Source: an uncultured Acidobacteriota bacterium
Lineage (GTDB): Bacteria > Acidobacteriota > Terriglobia > Bryobacterales > UBA6623
Reading direction: 5' to 3'
Assembly: GCA_963805925.1 (NCBI GenBank)
Contig: CAWDWB010000007.1
Location: 485,261 to 549,260, forward strand
DNA length: 64,000 bases
Shown here: positions 1,095 through 6,849 of the stretch, in pieces
How positions within the stretch are numbered: the stretch's first letter is position 1
Layout: every line of letters starts with the position of its first letter
Translations under genes and position numbers: made by a program
Notes under the pieces: model-generated
What the model saw: only the letters and a program-made list of their open reading frames with translations
The model's database searches: none
Told to the model about the DNA's origin: nothing

Positions 1095-2518
1095 CTAGCG
1101 GGTGCGGGTGTCGCCGCGCAGTTGGTTGTAGGCGTCGAGGGCCGCCTTGCGCGCTTCGGCGTGGTCGACCATCGGATACGGATAGTCCTTGCCCAACTCC
1201 ACGCCCGCTCGTTTCAGCACGGCGTCGGTGGCATTCCAGGGCTCATGAATGTCTTTCGCCGAGAGCGACTCCAACTCCGGAACCCAACGCCGAACGTATT
1301 TGCCTTTGGGGTCGAACTTCTGTCCCTGGCTCATTGGGTTAAAGATGCGGAAAAACGGCGCCGCGTCCGCGCCGCAACCGGCAGTCCACTGCCAGCCCAG
1401 TGTGTTGTTCGCTAGATCGGCGTCGACCAGCGTATCCCAGAACCAGCGCGCCCCCTCTTGCCAGGGAATCATCAGGTCTTTCACCAAGAACGAAGCGACA
1501 ATCATGCGCACCCGGTTGTGCATCCATCCGGTCTGCCAAAGCTGCCGCATGCCCGCATCCACAATGGGATAGCCCGTCTGACCCTGCTGCCAGAGCCTGC
1601 AACGCCTCCGGGTCATCCTTCCACGGGAAACGTGCGAACTCCGCTCGCAACGGCTCATCGGCGGTCTCGGGAAAGTGGAACAGCAAGTGCCGCCCGAACT
1701 CCCGCCACACCAGTTGCCTCTTCCACGCTTCGCCGCCTGAATTCGCCCGTGGCAACCCACGCCTGCCGAGGGCTGAGCTCGCCGAAACACAGATGCGGCG
1801 ATACTTGCGCGGTGCCCCGTACGCTTGGCACGTCGCGATCTCGCGAATATTTGCCCAACCCGCCGCGCACGAACTGTCTCAGGGTGTCCCGTGCCGATTC
1901 TTCACCCGGAGTCCACTCCTGCCGAAGTCCGCTGGTCCAATCGCGCTGCGGTTCCAAGTCCAGTTCTCTCAGCGGCTCCGAATCAGGCCACGACTCCGGC
2001 GCCGGCAGCTCGCTCGGTCTCAACAGCGGCTCGCCGTCTAGGCCCGCTTGTAGACAAGCGTTATAGAACGGCGTAAACACCTTGTAGGGCGTGCCCGCTT
2101 GCGTCGCAATCTCCCACGGCTCCCACAGCACGGAACCCTTCGTGCTCGTGGCTTCGAGGCCGTCTTCCGTGAGCGCTAGCTTGACTTGCTCGTCTCGTTC
2201 GACCGCTGCCGGCTCGTAGCGCCGGTTCCAAAAGACCGCTCCGGCGCCCGTCTGTCTGGCCAACTTCTGCAACGCAGGCAGCGCCCGGCCGCTGCGCAGC
2301 ACCAAGCGCGATCCCATCCTCTCCAGGTCTGCCGCAAGGGCTTTCAGCGACTCATGCAGCCACCATTGCGAGGCGCCGCCGGGGGCCCAGTCCTGCTCTT
2401 CCTGAGGAGACCAAATATAAACGGGAATAATCGGTTCGCCGCGATCCACGGCGGCCTGCAACGCCGGGTTGTCCGCGAGCCTTAGGTCTTGCCGGAACCA
2501 GACGAGAGAGGGGCCCAT
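1095..2518 (-). CDS. phrB: Deoxyribodipyrimidine (CPD class I/III) photolyase, split by two frameshifts (about 1740 and 1595)
   Basis: N-terminal [14 protein letters not shown] (ORF 1655..2518); middle RQLVWREF (ORF 1339..1755); C-terminal [30 protein letters not shown]...[11 protein letters not shown] (ORF 1095..1790). Confidence 0.9.
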
Positions 2519-2526
2519 GTCTGCGC

Positions 2527-2880
2527 CTAGTCGCTCTTAGCCGCAGGCTTGGAGTCGGTGGACTTGCTCTCGGTTTTCGACTCCGATTTCGCTTCGGACT
2601 TCGTTTCGGACTTCGATTCCGATTTCGACTCGGATTTCGATTCCGAGGACTCCGATTTGGCGGTCGACTTCGGCTTCTCGCCGCCCTTACCGTAGTCGTT
2701 GACGTACCAGCCCGCGCCCTTGAACTGAATCGCCGGCGCCGATAGGATCTTCTTCGATTCGCCGGCACACTCGGGATGCTCATCGCATTCCGGACAGCGC
2801 TTCACCGGCTCATCGGAGAACTTCTGGATCACCTCGAACCGTTTCCCGGTTCGGGGGCACTCGTATTCGTACAGCGGCAT
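2527..2880 (-). CDS. FmdB family zinc-ribbon protein with low-complexity Lys/Ser/Glu tail
   Basis: MPLYEYEC...FEVIQKFSDEP..CPEC...FKGAGWYVNDY is typical of FmdB; the ATG at 2880 is preferred as start. Confidence 0.85.
   Translation of the reverse strand: MPLYEYECPRTGKRFEVIQKFSDEPVKRCPECDEHPECAGESKKILSAPAIQFKGAGWYVNDYGKGGEKPKSTAKSESSESKSESKSESKSETKSEAKSESKTESKSTDSKPAAKSD
2560..2660 (-). repeat. Degenerate 12-bp coding tandem repeat (KSES/KSET/KSEA units)
   Basis: Translation KSESSESKSESKSESKSETKSEAKSESKTESKS. Confidence 0.7.
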
Positions 2881-3017
2881 GGATGGGTAAGGGACCGAAA
2901 ACAGCCGGGAAGTACTTCCCAGCGTCAAGTTAATTGTATCATTTGGCCATAAGCCGCAGGCCCAGCCTTTGCGCCGCCCGCATCCGGCTCCACTGCGGCT
3001 GATCGCGCCAGTTTTCC

Positions 3018-3830
3018 ATGACGGATCAACAACTTGACGATCTAGTAGCGCGCATCGGCGACGAACTGTTGACCCGTCTCGGAATCTCCGAGCTGCCGGC
3101 GTCGCCCGCCCACGCCTGCGCCTGCGCTGTGGAGCCCTCGGCGCCGCCCGCTCCGGCGCCTGCTCCCAGTTGGATTCCAGCCAGGATCGGCCTGAACTGC
3201 CGCGACTCCAGCAGCACCTCCGCCGAGATTGGCGCTCGATGCCTCCAGGCGCGTACCCTGGAGTTGGGCGGAGTCAGTGTTTTCCCGAGTCACGTCGTTG
3301 CCGCTGGGCGCATCTTGCGACGGACCGGCGTGATCGTCGTTGCCGCCGTCGGCTGGCCGTATGGAGCGACCTCCACCGCCTCTAAAGCGCTCGAAGCGGA
3401 ACTGGCCTTGGGGCAGGGCGCCGATGAGATCGAAGTCGTGGTTCCTTCGGGCGCGCTGCTCGCCGGCGAAGATGACTTGGTGTTTGGTGAGTTGAAGTTC
3501 ATCGCTGAAATGACGCATCGTGCAGCCAAGACCGTGACCGCCGTCATCGAGACGCCGGGTCTGGACCAGGACCGCCTCATCGCCGCATGCGCCCTGAGCC
3601 GGCTCGCCGGCGCCGACGCTGTCTGTGCCGCCGCCGGTCTCGCCGCCCATGGCGCCGCAAGCGCCGAAGCCGTGCATTTGTTCCGCAAGGTGGTAGGTCA
3701 AGACATGCACGTCCATGCCATGGGCGGAGTCGCTTCGGAGGCCGCCGCACTCACCTTGGCCGCCGCCGGCGCGGACCGCGTCACCATTGAGTTTCTTCCT
3801 GGCGCACGGCGCGGAGCGGGGCGCTTCTAA
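3018..3830 (+). CDS. DeoC (deoxyribose-phosphate aldolase)-like TIM barrel, catalytically degenerate, with N-terminal amphipathic extension
   Basis: VGWPYGA, GADEIEVV, IETP, AGADAV and MGGV match the DeoC scaffold, but the Schiff-base Lys motif reads VCAAAG instead of VKTSTG. Confidence 0.8.
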   Translation: MTDQQLDDLVARIGDELLTRLGISELPASPAHACACAVEPSAPPAPAPAPSWIPARIGLNCRDSSSTSAEIGARCLQARTLELGGVSVFPSHVVAAGRILRRTGVIVVAAVGWPYGATSTASKALEAELALGQGADEIEVVVPSGALLAGEDDLVFGELKFIAEMTHRAAKTVTAVIETPGLDQDRLIAACALSRLAGADAVCAAAGLAAHGAASAEAVHLFRKVVGQDMHVHAMGGVASEAAALTLAAAGADRVTIEFLPGARRGAGRF

Positions 3831-5569
3831 TGGATCCCTTAAGCTCGACCGCGCGCCCGCGCGCTGATCCGTTTCAGATCCTCGCCGAGGCGTCCGACGT
3901 CGCCGCCAATCACGCCCTCGATCTCGAGGACCTGTTGCGCGCTCTCGAAGGCCTCATACGCAAGGTGGTTCCCTATCAACTCTTCGCCATCCTGTTGGCG
4001 GACGAAGACGGCGTGCTCACGATTCGCCACTCCATCGGCTATCGCGCCGAATTGGCCGGCAGACTCCGGGTCAAGCCAGGCGAAGGGATCACGGGCTCCG
4101 CCGCGCAGACTCGAACCACCGTCGTGGTTAACGACGTGACCCAAGATCCCCGCTACCTGATGGCGATTGACGCTGTGCGCTCCGAAATATCGGTCCCGCT
4201 GATCGCCCGCGGCAAACTCGTCGGCGTCATCGATCTGCAGTCCTCCGTCACTGGGGCCTTTGGAGATCAAGAGCGTAACCTGCTCGAACTCATCGGCTCC
4301 CGCTTTTCGCTGGCCATCGACGCCGCCGGTCTTTACGAAGAGATGGTGCGCAAGAACGAAACGCTCACCACGCTCGCCAAGATCGCCCGCGAGTTTTCGT
4401 CGATTCTCAACCTTGAGGAGTTGCTCAAGAAGATCGCTGAACTTGTCCGTGGCCTCGTGCCGTTCGACGCGCTGGCCATTTACCTCATCGATCAGGGGAT
4501 TCTGCGCCACTATTTCGGGGTTCGTTTCAACGCTCGCGTCGCCTGGCAGAATATGCCCATCGGCTACGGTGTGGTCGGTCACGCGGCCGCCGACCGCGAG
4601 CCCATCCTCGTGAGCAACACGGCCAAGGACCCGCGCTACGTCCCTCTGGTCGAAGGCATCCGCTCTGAAGTGGCCGTACCGCTGATCCTCAAAGACTCCG
4701 TCATCGGCGTCCTCGATCTCGAGTCCAGCACGGTCGCCGCATTCGACGAAGACCTGGTCCAGACCCTGACTCTGCTCGCGCCGCAAATCGCCGCCGCCAT
4801 CGAGAACGCTCGCCTCTACGAACAAGTGGCCGACAACCAGGCGCGCCTCCAAAAAGACCTGCGCGCCGCGCGCCAACTGCAGCAAAGCCTGCTGCCTTTC
4901 TGCTGCCCCACCTTCGGCGGAGTTCAGATCGCCGCGCGCAATCTGCCCGCCAGCGAAGTCTCCGGCGATTACTACGACTTCATCACGAACGGCGAAGAGA
5001 GCATCGGCATCTGGAGCGGCGACGTCAGCGGCAAGGGCGCCGCCGCGGCCCTCTATGCTGCCGTATCCAGCGGGCTGCTGCGCACGCTCACCGTCGACAG
5101 CCCTGACCCCCGTCAGCTGTTGACCGACTTCAACAACGCTCTGCTCGCGCGTCAGTTGGAAACTCGCTACGTCGCAGGCATCTATGCTGAGTGGCGGCCG
5201 GCCACCCATACGCTCACTGTCGCTTCCGCCGGACAACCTCGTCCACTGCTGCGCCGTGGCGATACGGTCGAGACCCTCGACATCGGCGGCATACCGCTCG
5301 GCCTGCTCGAAGAGAGCAACTACGACCGCATCGAGCTTCAACTCGAAAAGGGCGACCTCTTCGTCACCGCTTCCGACGGTATTCACGAAGCCCGCGACTC
5401 CCAGGGCAACGACTACGGAGACACCCGCCTTCGCGAATTCGTCCAGTCTCTGCCCGCCGACTCCAGCGCAGAACGCGTCGTGTCTGCCATCCTGGAAGAC
5501 GTCGCCCGCTTCAGCGGACGCGAGACGCCATCCGACGACCGCACCGTCATCGTGCTGCGGGCCGTGTAG
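3830..5569 (+). CDS. GAF-GAF-SpoIIE (PP2C, RsbU-like) Ser/Thr phosphatase
   Basis: Two GAF repeats (RSEISVPL, RSEVAVPL); PP2C motifs SGDYYD, GDVSGKG, SDGIHE, SDDRT; TAATG overlap with upstream gene. Confidence 0.9.
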   Translation: MDPLSSTARPRADPFQILAEASDVAANHALDLEDLLRALEGLIRKVVPYQLFAILLADEDGVLTIRHSIGYRAELAGRLRVKPGEGITGSAAQTRTTVVVNDVTQDPRYLMAIDAVRSEISVPLIARGKLVGVIDLQSSVTGAFGDQERNLLELIGSRFSLAIDAAGLYEEMVRKNETLTTLAKIAREFSSILNLEELLKKIAELVRGLVPFDALAIYLIDQGILRHYFGVRFNARVAWQNMPIGYGVVGHAAADREPILVSNTAKDPRYVPLVEGIRSEVAVPLILKDSVIGVLDLESSTVAAFDEDLVQTLTLLAPQIAAAIENARLYEQVADNQARLQKDLRAARQLQQSLLPFCCPTFGGVQIAARNLPASEVSGDYYDFITNGEESIGIWSGDVSGKGAAAALYAAVSSGLLRTLTVDSPDPRQLLTDFNNALLARQLETRYVAGIYAEWRPATHTLTVASAGQPRPLLRRGDTVETLDIGGIPLGLLEESNYDRIELQLEKGDLFVTASDGIHEARDSQGNDYGDTRLREFVQSLPADSSAERVVSAILEDVARFSGRETPSDDRTVIVLRAV

Positions 5570-5598
5570 GGCAAATACAACTCGGGAAGGGAATGGGA

Positions 5599-6849
5599 AT
5601 GCCGCTGTCGGGCTTCGAACGTCGCCAGGGAGAACTTTACTGTGAAGGCGCGTCTTTGTCCGCCATCGCCGAGAAAGCCGGTACGCCCACTTACGTCTAT
5701 TCCGGGACGACGATTCGCGACAACTACCGCAGCTACGCCGCCGCGCTCGCCGGCCTGCCGCACGAGATCCACTACGCCGTCAAAGCCAACTCGTCTCTCG
5801 GCGTCCTCGCGCTGTTAGCTCGCGAAGGGGCCGGTTTCGACATCGTCTCCGGCGGAGAACTCTTCCGCGTCCTGCAAGCGGGAGGCGATCCTGCCCGTGT
5901 CGTGTTCTCCGGCGTCGGCAAGACGCGGCAAGAGATGGTCTATGCCTTGGAGCAGGGAACCGGCTGGTTTAACTGCGAGTCCGAAGCCGAACTTCGCCTG
6001 CTCGCCGAACTCGCCTCCGATGCCGGCGCCGCGCCTTCGGTCGCCCTGCGCGTCAACCCGAACGTCGACGCGGAGACCCACCCATACATCGCCACCGGCC
6101 TCAGCGCTCACAAGTTTGGCATCGACATCGTCGCAGCCGAACGCATCTACCGCCGCGCCGACGAATTCGCGCCGCTGCGCCTGGAAGGCGTGAGTTGCCA
6201 CATCGGCTCACAGATCTTCAACACACAAGCGTTCTTTGACGCCCTCGATCTCGTGCTCGCCCTGATCGAACGCCTCCGCGAAGACGGTGTAGCGATCACC
6301 CAACTCGATCTCGGCGGCGGTCTCGGCGTCGCTTACAAGCCGGCCGATACGACCCCAGTTATCGCCGACTACGCCTCGCGCCTTGCCGCCAATCTCCAAG
6401 GCTGCGGCTTGAAACTCACTCTTGAACCGGGCCGCTCCATCGTCGGCCAAGCAGGCGTGCTGCTCACGCGCGTGCTCTACCGCAAGCCCACCTCTTCCAA
6501 GACGTTTATCGTCGTCGATGCGGCGATGAACGACCTCATCCGTCCCGCACTCTACCAAGCGCATCACGAGATCGTGCCGGTCGTCGACCGCCAGCGCCCC
6601 AGCCTGCGCGCCGACGTCGTCGGCCCGGTGTGTGAAAGCGGAGACTTCCTGGCCAAAGACCGCGACATGCCCGACGTCGAGCCCGGCGAACTGCTGGTCG
6701 CCGCCACCGCCGGAGCGTATGGCTTCGTTCTAGCGTCCAACTACAACGCGCGCCCACGAGCCGCCGAAGTTCTCGTTGAGGGAGACCGCTGGCGCATCAT
6801 CCGCGATCGCGAGTCTTTAGATGATTTGATTCGCGGCGAACGCGTCTAA
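5599..6849 (+). CDS. lysA: Diaminopimelate decarboxylase
   Basis: YAVKAN PLP lysine, HIGSQI, EPGR, GPVCESGD, GAYG..ASNYNARPR. Confidence 0.95.
   Translation: MPLSGFERRQGELYCEGASLSAIAEKAGTPTYVYSGTTIRDNYRSYAAALAGLPHEIHYAVKANSSLGVLALLAREGAGFDIVSGGELFRVLQAGGDPARVVFSGVGKTRQEMVYALEQGTGWFNCESEAELRLLAELASDAGAAPSVALRVNPNVDAETHPYIATGLSAHKFGIDIVAAERIYRRADEFAPLRLEGVSCHIGSQIFNTQAFFDALDLVLALIERLREDGVAITQLDLGGGLGVAYKPADTTPVIADYASRLAANLQGCGLKLTLEPGRSIVGQAGVLLTRVLYRKPTSSKTFIVVDAAMNDLIRPALYQAHHEIVPVVDRQRPSLRADVVGPVCESGDFLAKDRDMPDVEPGELLVAATAGAYGFVLASNYNARPRAAEVLVEGDRWRIIRDRESLDDLIRGERV

Follow-up and report, generated by a model that had tools for sequence, protein, structure and literature searches.

A gene at positions 3018..3830 (+) of a 64,000-nucleotide stretch of DNA from an uncultured acidobacterium (contig CAWDWB010000007.1, the whole stretch being called the window here) encodes a 270-residue pseudoenzyme derived from deoxyribose-5-phosphate aldolase (DERA), the product of deoC. 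In this protein (P0001, hereafter pseudo-DERA) the residues that carry the aldolase chemistry have been replaced, the reading frame is maintained by purifying selection, and the N-terminus is a predicted helix whose counterparts on related DeoC proteins are found mainly in genomes with shell genes of bacterial microcompartments (BMCs). We propose that pseudo-DERA may still be targeted to such an organelle as non-catalytic cargo, and we assign this reading a probability of about one half. It is the simplest one, because the aldolase chemistry appears to be gone, the protein has been kept intact, and so has a tag that is linked to the organelle.

Fold and Catalytic Positions

The open reading frame (ORF) is intact, with an ATG start, 270 codons and a TAA stop at 3828-3830 (ORF list and translation), and the start codon is confirmed by the N-terminus MTDQQLDDLV..., which is near-invariant across the orthologues. 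The protein scores 121.1 bits against the NCBIfam model TIGR00126 (deoC), just over the cut-off of 117.3, and 16.6 bits against Pfam PF01791, under the cut-off of 23.8. Its closest sequence match in the PDB is the DERA of T. maritima (3r12, E 3e-32). An AlphaFold2 model, calculated with 15 clade members as input, has eight barrel strands and a mean predicted local distance difference test score (pLDDT) of 83.8, and the top PDB matches of this model in Foldseek are all DERAs (5dbu, 5h91, and 3r12; E ~1e-18, target template modelling score 0.76-0.92). The model thus confidently predicts a DERA-type TIM barrel, as expected from the initial annotation, which had described an intact ORF of the DeoC fold.

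The barrel occupies residues 55-262 (3180..3803 (+)), as judged from alignments with E. coli DeoC, active acidobacterial DeoCs, and 3r12. To compare the catalytic positions, E. coli deoC from NC_000913.3 was aligned with active acidobacterial DeoCs and four members of the clade of pseudo-DERA, and the E. coli numbering is used below for the active enzymes. In DERA, the Schiff base is formed by K167 and the proton relay by K201 and D102, and exchange of K167 leads to loss of function (PMC6016325). In pseudo-DERA, K167 is replaced by C203 (codon 3624-3626), which occupies the same column in the alignment with 3r12, while K201 and D102 correspond to H233 (3714-3716) and E139 (3432-3434), respectively. 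Further replacements are found at D16 (G58, 3189-3191), T18 (N60), C47 (S87), and K137 (T174, 3537-3539), and the phosphate positions S238/S239 have become E258/F259 (3789-3794). The glycines G171, G204, and G205 are retained. All six motif changes listed in the initial annotation are present in this alignment. With the lysine of the Schiff base, both residues of the proton relay, and some of the phosphate site missing, pseudo-DERA presumably cannot act as a class I aldolase.

One may ask whether the protein is still an aldolase, in which a lysine elsewhere, or Cys203 together with His233, has taken over the catalysis. The catalytic residues of pseudoenzymes are known to migrate in some cases (PMC10211241), and the TIGR00126 score is still over its cut-off. 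However, none of D102, K137, K167, and K201 is preserved, and Glu and Phe stand in place of the two phosphate-site serines. In addition, the protein has only four lysines (K124, K161, K171, and K225), and the secondary structure of the model places each of them either within a helix or immediately ahead of strand 5, where the barrel has its bottom end. A relocated catalytic lysine is therefore unlikely on the basis of the model, in keeping with the catalytically dead enzyme that had been proposed, and we consider residual aldolase activity to be extremely improbable.

Selection on the Gene

The ratios of nonsynonymous to synonymous substitution rates (dN/dS) were calculated by the Nei-Gojobori method for three unsaturated pairs of close orthologues, with dS of 0.50-0.82. 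The ratio is 0.16-0.21 for the whole of pseudo-DERA, 0.12-0.17 for the barrel, 0-0.09 for the N-terminal helix (residues 1-22), and 0.28-0.54 for the linker between them. For the two genes that follow, encoding a PP2C phosphatase and LysA, the same pairs give 0.06-0.09. Pseudo-DERA is thus under clear purifying selection, which is about half as tight as on the neighbors and is tightest on the helix. Neutral decay, which the initial annotation had named as the outcome that would speak against its proposal, is rejected by the ratios among the orthologues.

These numbers also bear on the possibility that the gene is a functionless relic, that is, a decaying gene kept by chance or through polar effects on the genes downstream. 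Its evolution about two times faster than that of the neighbors and its Pfam score under the family threshold would be in line with such a scenario. On the other hand, the frame is intact in 30 full-length proteins of the clade that share 42-85% identity with P0001, the dN/dS values stay well under 1, with the minimum in the helix, and the barrel is modeled with confidence. A relic is accordingly regarded as very improbable.

Orthology and Phylogeny

The gene had initially been annotated as a paralogue of an active deoC. The comparison of genomes shows instead that pseudo-DERA is the sole TIGR00126 match in its own genome (G000, 96.6% complete), and the form that lacks the Schiff-base lysine (the dead form) is also the sole copy in three of the four other genomes that have it (G201, G202, and G204). 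In the fourth, G203, a second DeoC is encoded elsewhere in the genome, which is of the active type and has no helix. In a sample of 201 genomes from the class, the dead form occurs in G000 alone, with a score of 460 bits vs at most 178 bits for the rest. The count from the search behind these scores is 141/201; this tally and that of 124/201 given below for shell genes include two unpublished genomes (G075 and G106), on which no other result rests. The K167 and K201 motifs are intact in all 69 other DeoC loci retrieved from the class (29 + 40).

The order DeoC, GAF-PP2C phosphatase, lysA is common to the dead and active loci. A PP2C homologue is located 3' of DeoC in 27 of the 29 class-sample loci, in L054, and in every dead-form locus, and lysA lies 3' of the PP2C gene in L009, L010, L052, and L054. 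Because the dead and active loci share this gene order, the dead gene occupies the ancestral site of the active DeoC, and it is a positional orthologue of the latter rather than a paralogue. The suggestion that pseudo-DERA is a hetero-oligomer partner of an active DeoC does not hold either, since no active DeoC was found in this genome.

A word-indexed protein search returned 90 proteins. The dead group, P0001-P0032, originates from acidobacterial metagenome-assembled genomes and metagenomes, with 42-85% identity to P0001, and the residue at the K167 position is not Lys in any of the 32 proteins. All 56 proteins P0033-P0088 have Lys there; these are DeoCs of ~290-300 residues with all motifs intact, D102, K167, and K201 included, and most of them carry an N-terminal helix homologous to that of pseudo-DERA. 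In a maximum-likelihood tree, the dead group is recovered as one clade with an SH-aLRT support of 99, placed within the acidobacterial DeoCs. Its stem measures 1.43 substitutions per site, and the clade is deep in itself, with identities as low as 42%. This first tree included one long-branch row, and a second tree calculated without it recovered the same dead clade.

An exhaustive profile search yielded 8576 proteins at E <=1e-3, and among the best 150 of these, eight more clusters combine partly degenerate sites with the helix (P0093, P0094, P0096, P0099, P0100, P0104, P0125, and P0142, the helix of the last being degenerate). In the second tree, seven of the eight join the dead group in a wider clade (branch support 99), while P0142 instead groups with the active DeoC of G090. 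P0093 retains none of K137, K167, and K201, whereas P0094 retains K167 and K201 but not K137, which suggests a stepwise degeneration. Pseudo-DERA would be the orthologue of the microcompartment-targeted DERA of related Acidobacteria, having lost catalysis and kept both the barrel and the encapsulation peptide (EP). As a separate observation, the best 150 proteins also contain helix-less DeoC homologues without Lys at the K167 position (e.g., P0160, P0169, P0217, P0223, and P0225), so that dead DeoC-like proteins are not limited to microcompartment contexts.

N-Terminal Helix and Its Association with Shell Genes

The EP-like helix comprises residues 1-22 (MTDQQLDDLVARIGDELLTRLG, 3018..3083 (+)) and is assigned on the basis of the predicted helix, its low dN/dS, and the homologous helix on active DeoCs. 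In the AlphaFold2 model, the helix spans residues 3-20 with a block-mean pLDDT of ~80. It is followed by a low-confidence Pro/Ala linker (residues 23-54, 3084..3179 (+)), in which pLDDT is below 50 over residues 25-43, between the helix and the barrel. The linker contains a CxC motif (C34 and C36, codons 3117-3125) and W52; C36 is invariant and C34 and W52 are near-invariant among 15 sequences. The HACAC element noted initially is thus real, and its CxC is kept in 28 of the 30 full-length dead-clade proteins.

The helix is homologous to that of active DeoCs in related Acidobacteria, for which the consensus is roughly T-x-A-E-L-D-x-L-V-A-Q-I-G-E-E-I-L-A-R, with a Cys-rich stretch after the helix. 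This Cys-rich stretch is an observation in its own right. It is conserved within the N-terminal 60-100 residues of the active helix-bearing DeoCs (P0033-P0088; L012-L040 and L098-L117), in one type as EGLN.PD.VCPGC..RC...C....I..GADRVSAS and in a shorter type as C.C(.H), and the dead clade has the CxC only. It is possible that the stretch is a metal or redox element; no discussion of it was found in the portion of the literature that was available.

To relate the helix to microcompartments, the DeoC N-termini were read in two sets, one consisting of the 29 best-scoring loci and the other of 40 loci chosen by shell status alone. Matches to PF00936 are present in 124 of the 201 class-sample genomes. 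The helix extension is found on DeoC in 42 of 45 shell-positive (PF00936) genomes vs 2 of 24 shell-negative ones, counts that are not independent because the genomes are kin. The association is also seen within families: in f2 the helix is present in 16/16 shell-positive and 0/8 shell-negative genomes, and in f7 in 5/5 and 0/8, respectively, plus one partial case among the latter. The view of the N-terminus as EP-like is borne out in this respect. That it behaves as an encapsulation peptide is supported, and physical encapsulation of pseudo-DERA would be expected.

Shell Genes and Type of Organelle

The genome encodes the shell proteins that the proposal of the initial annotation calls for, with two PF00936 and three PF03319 matches at two sites. 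On contig C9 (L007 9179-11176), a class II aldolase (pfam00596), a BMC-H, and three BMC-P genes stand in a row, and on contig C3 a BMC-H gene lies beside that of a 617-residue aldehyde dehydrogenase (AldDh). This content fits an ACI-like microcompartment, judging from the genes. The ACI type has been described as having an aldolase with a C-terminal EP, a BMC-H and a BMC-P triplet, and a satellite AldDh in which a small domain comes after the EP (Sutter et al. 2021, PMC8217296). The present genome resembles it in the class II aldolase with a C-terminal helix, in a BMC-H with a BMC-P triplet, in the satellite AldDh with a BMC-H, and in that the host is an acidobacterium. It differs in that neither the ACI type's hydroxyacid dehydrogenase nor its three unknown proteins were seen among the 23 ORFs scanned in 20 kb round the main shell locus. 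DeoC is not mentioned in the available portion of the ACI description.

The AldDh (L008 8078-9931 (-)) retains its Cys in a CSSEQ motif. As read by eye, it has a Pro/Ala-rich C-terminal extension of ~150 residues with helix-like segments, which ends in a conserved-looking domain of ~45 residues (FVCEDDVRRA...IITPAARDLA...). The latter may correspond to the "about 50 aa domain" that is left unexplained where the ACI type is described.

The class II aldolase beside the shell genes carries a C-terminal helix motif (VTRQQLVDLVEQAVLAR). Among 20 aldolases of relatives, a matching C-terminal helix was found in 15 by motif search and in 3 more by eye, and 2 are without it. One position covaries between the two helices, with Q in both DeoC and aldolase in G000, G201, G202, and G204 and E in both in G203; in all 15 other genomes examined, the aldolase reads E there. 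The co-change is suggestive only, because it represents a single evolutionary event.

The initial annotation had referred to DeoC as signature cargo of microcompartments of the sugar phosphate utilization (SPU) type, which have an active DERA and an EP-bearing RPI (pfam02502), usually with a PTAC. Assignment of the present organelle to this type is rejected: the DERA is dead, searches for PduL and for an RpiB with an EP were negative, and the layout fits the ACI description. For PF06130 (PduL/PTAC), no match was found in the 96.6% complete genome. The genome does encode an intact RpiB, which has no extension and still has a Cys in the motif CGSG; the other match to PF02502 is a broken fragment of 46 residues.

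The likely mechanism is that the helix would take pseudo-DERA into the lumen of the ACI-like microcompartment, where the class II aldolase, with its own terminal helix, and AldDh, with a putative one, would enter alongside it. Inside, pseudo-DERA could serve as a core-packing or organizing subunit, by analogy with the role proposed for the inactive RPI of SPU organelles (PMC11585597). The scaffold or ligand-sensor role suggested in the initial annotation is an inference.

Evidence against the Proposed Encapsulation, and a Possible Remodeled Pocket

A number of observations weigh against pseudo-DERA being encapsulated cargo, and they are collected here. Pseudo-DERA is encoded on contig C7, beside the GAF-PP2C gene, and the shell genes are on C9 and C3, none of them adjoining it. 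The presence of BMC-H genes in all five dead-form genomes is weak evidence, the background being 124/201 and the genomes being kin. The association between helix and shell genes also has exceptions on both sides: three shell-positive genomes, all of family f10, have no DeoC helix (G036, G086, and G139), and two shell-negative genomes have one, namely G081, which is ~96% complete and in which no shell genes were found, and G067, in which the helix is partial. Moreover, the hydrophobic moment of the helix, 0.418, is equalled by 12% of shuffled sequences. The initial annotation of an amphipathic N-terminal helix therefore stands as regards the helix, and the amphipathicity is modest and unexceptional.

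The relation between the two cargo helices is subject to similar reservations. The pattern T.QQL.DLV has two matches, at the N-terminus of pseudo-DERA and the C-terminus of the aldolase, in 5.05 million six-frame residues, for 0.0075 expected, with the pattern having been drawn up after viewing both sequences. A hidden Markov model (HMM) built from 83 N-terminal helices of DeoC retrieved only pseudo-DERA itself from the complete set of six-frame ORFs (E 1e-8; next 0.26). The HMM for the C-terminal helix of the aldolase, built from 15 sequences, retrieved the aldolase alone and not the DeoC helix, and in a blastp-short search with residues 1-24 the aldolase was outside the top 15. Since these scans were negative, they add no more EP-bearing cargo, and unbiased scoring does not connect the two helices.

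Finally, the residues that have replaced the catalytic ones (C61-R62-D63, T174, and C203) are conserved within the close subclade, as might be the case if they formed the site of a new ligand and the protein were more than a scaffold. We have thus also considered that pseudo-DERA is a neofunctionalized cargo protein, whose remodeled pocket (E139, T174, C203, H233, and C61-R62-D63) would hold a new ligand or metal, or perform new chemistry, in the organelle. The position of K167 is Cys in 28 of the 29 proteins P0001-P0029 and that of K137 is Thr in all 28 that cover it, and the dN/dS of the barrel (0.12-0.17) also speaks for this reading. Furthermore, conserved Cys/His proteins are noted in the ACI description, with the suggestion that metal binding is important for such loci (Sutter 2021, Supplementary Data 2). 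However, no candidate nucleophile is common to the whole dead clade. P0030-P0032 have Ala or Gly at the K167 position and Q, A, and A at that of C61, H233 is Lys in nine proteins, and the related degenerate clusters carry other residues again (GAIAI, DEARV, EDRRV, and EELSK). New chemistry or a new ligand is on these grounds quite unlikely in our judgment, and we retain non-catalytic cargo as the preferred reading.

Comparison with Known Systems

A rule like that seen here across the class has been reported for SPU loci by Dwyer, Sutter, and Kerfeld (2024, PMC11585597): all DERAs of these loci carry a helical extension at the N-terminus that is missing from DERAs outside BMCs, and D102, K167, and K201 are conserved. 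Pseudo-DERA is similar to the SPU enzyme in combining the DERA fold with such an extension, and its active acidobacterial relatives (P0033-P0088) share with the SPU enzyme the intact D102, K167, and K201 and, in most cases, the extension. In contrast, pseudo-DERA has E, C, and H at these three positions. Its extension comprises 54 residues, a helix and a disordered CxC linker, whereas that of the SPU DERA has ~70 residues and two strands. The gene is also unlinked to the shell genes, in a genome without the SPU-type RPI and PTAC.

The RPI of SPU organelles, an RpiB homologue, lacks the catalytic Cys and is inactive; it bears a typical EP and associates 1:1 with DERA. The authors of that study propose that it was retained as a component required for core packing, and cite an aldehyde dehydrogenase of GRM loci and CcmM as parallels (PMC11585597). 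Pseudo-DERA resembles it as the homologue of an enzyme in which the EP is kept although catalytic residues are lost. The two differ in fold and family, and the inactivity and the complex of RPI have been measured, whereas pseudo-DERA, which is the signature enzyme itself, is known from its sequence and a model. A second AldDH without the catalytic Cys, suggested to be a scaffold or regulator, is encoded in GRM1 loci (Axen et al. 2014, PMC4207490). It resembles pseudo-DERA as a catalytically defunct homologue of metabolosome cargo. However, the GRM1 locus also encodes an active copy, whereas the dead DeoC is the sole copy in G000, G201, G202, and G204.

Proteins of pfam01791 with an EP-like N-terminus are encoded away from the HO loci and have been described as sugar-processing (Sutter et al. 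2021, PMC8217296). Like pseudo-DERA, these are DeoC-family cargo candidates encoded apart from the shell genes; unlike for pseudo-DERA, a loss of catalytic residues is not reported in the available portion of the HO description. The EP of the HO AldDh is N-terminal, whereas the AldDh extension in the present genome is C-terminal.

Neighboring Genes and the Phosphatase

The gene of pseudo-DERA is followed by that of a GAF-GAF-PP2C (SpoIIE-type) phosphatase (3830..5569 (+); two Pfam GAF domains and SpoIIE). The stop codon of the former and the ATG of the latter overlap by one base (TAATG), and a scan found no terminator-like site between the two genes. These features, together with the PP2C homologue that lies 3' of DeoC in 27/29 class-sample loci, L054, and all dead-form loci, would be compatible with pseudo-DERA acting as a ligand sensor, substrate, or anchor for the presumably co-transcribed phosphatase, with the helix serving this interaction or coupling the signaling to the organelle. 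However, the same pairing occurs with active DeoCs and in shell-less, helix-less genomes (L030, L031, L032, and L054), and it therefore predates the loss of catalysis. It may reflect inherited gene order only, and an association with the phosphatase accounts for neither the loss of catalysis nor the helix. We thus consider this role unlikely, and non-catalytic cargo remains the reading that we favor. Promoter and terminator scans gave nothing above shuffle expectation.

The next gene is lysA (diaminopimelate decarboxylase, 5587..6849 (+)), with 496 bits against TIGR01048 over residues 144-550 of the listed ORF. The latter begins at 5191, inside the phosphatase gene, and homology is found only from residue ~133-144 (from residue 133 in tblastn to L009). 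Since the homology begins ~130 codons into the ORF, the true start of lysA is probably at ~5587 and the part 5191-5586 of the listed frame is probably untranslated. As a side observation, the order DeoC-GAF-PP2C(-lysA) (window 3018-6849; L012-L040, L051, L052, and L054) is deeply conserved in the class, with or without shell genes.

On the other side of pseudo-DERA, a divergent gene of the FmdB family, encoding a zinc-ribbon protein (2527..2928 (-); TIGR02605, 60.5 bits), is the conserved upstream neighbor at dead-form loci, with tblastn matches in L009, L010, L051, and L052. Further upstream, a photolyase gene (1095-2518 (-)) is present as two overlapping frames, 1655-2518 and 1095-1790. Its orthologue in L009 is a single ORF of 474 residues, of which residues 260-307 align with neither piece in the window.

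Contigs from public metagenomes match the window at 3006-3514 (run X4, identical) and 3432-3901 (run X1, one letter different). Run X1 may be the sample behind the assembly of the window itself. The public runs listed include none of RNA. One contig of this run (depth 3.5) is one base short at 1744, within the overlap of the photolyase frames, and the photolyase split may accordingly be strain-specific or an assembly error.

Implications

A BMC-targeted DERA with a helix, as well as dead enzymes that bear an EP and are retained for packing, have already been published (PMC11585597 and PMC4207490). Our literature search returned no DERA devoid of all catalytic residues that has a helix, is under purifying selection, and is the sole DeoC of its genome; the supplements of Dwyer 2024, with the DERA sequences, were outside this search.

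We tentatively put forward a broader hypothesis, which we regard as possible yet doubtful. In this class, the ACI-like microcompartments would regularly contain an unlinked, EP-tagged DERA as a cargo that has not been catalogued so far, maybe the missing signature enzyme that generates the aldehyde. In one lineage it would have become an obligate, non-catalytic organizer of the core, long kept because the assembly of the organelle, or the balance of its cargo, would depend on it. If this were true, the lineage would be a natural experiment in which the part that a signature enzyme plays in packing is separated from the reaction that it catalyzes.

If pseudo-DERA is encapsulated, it would offer a clean system in which the contribution of a cargo protein to assembly is seen apart from catalysis, as well as a ready inert carrier for engineering. 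For the class as a whole, a helix-bearing DeoC tracks the shell genes, and this points to deoxyribose phosphate as a substrate that could be tested for the ACI-like organelle, whose function is catalogued as unknown.

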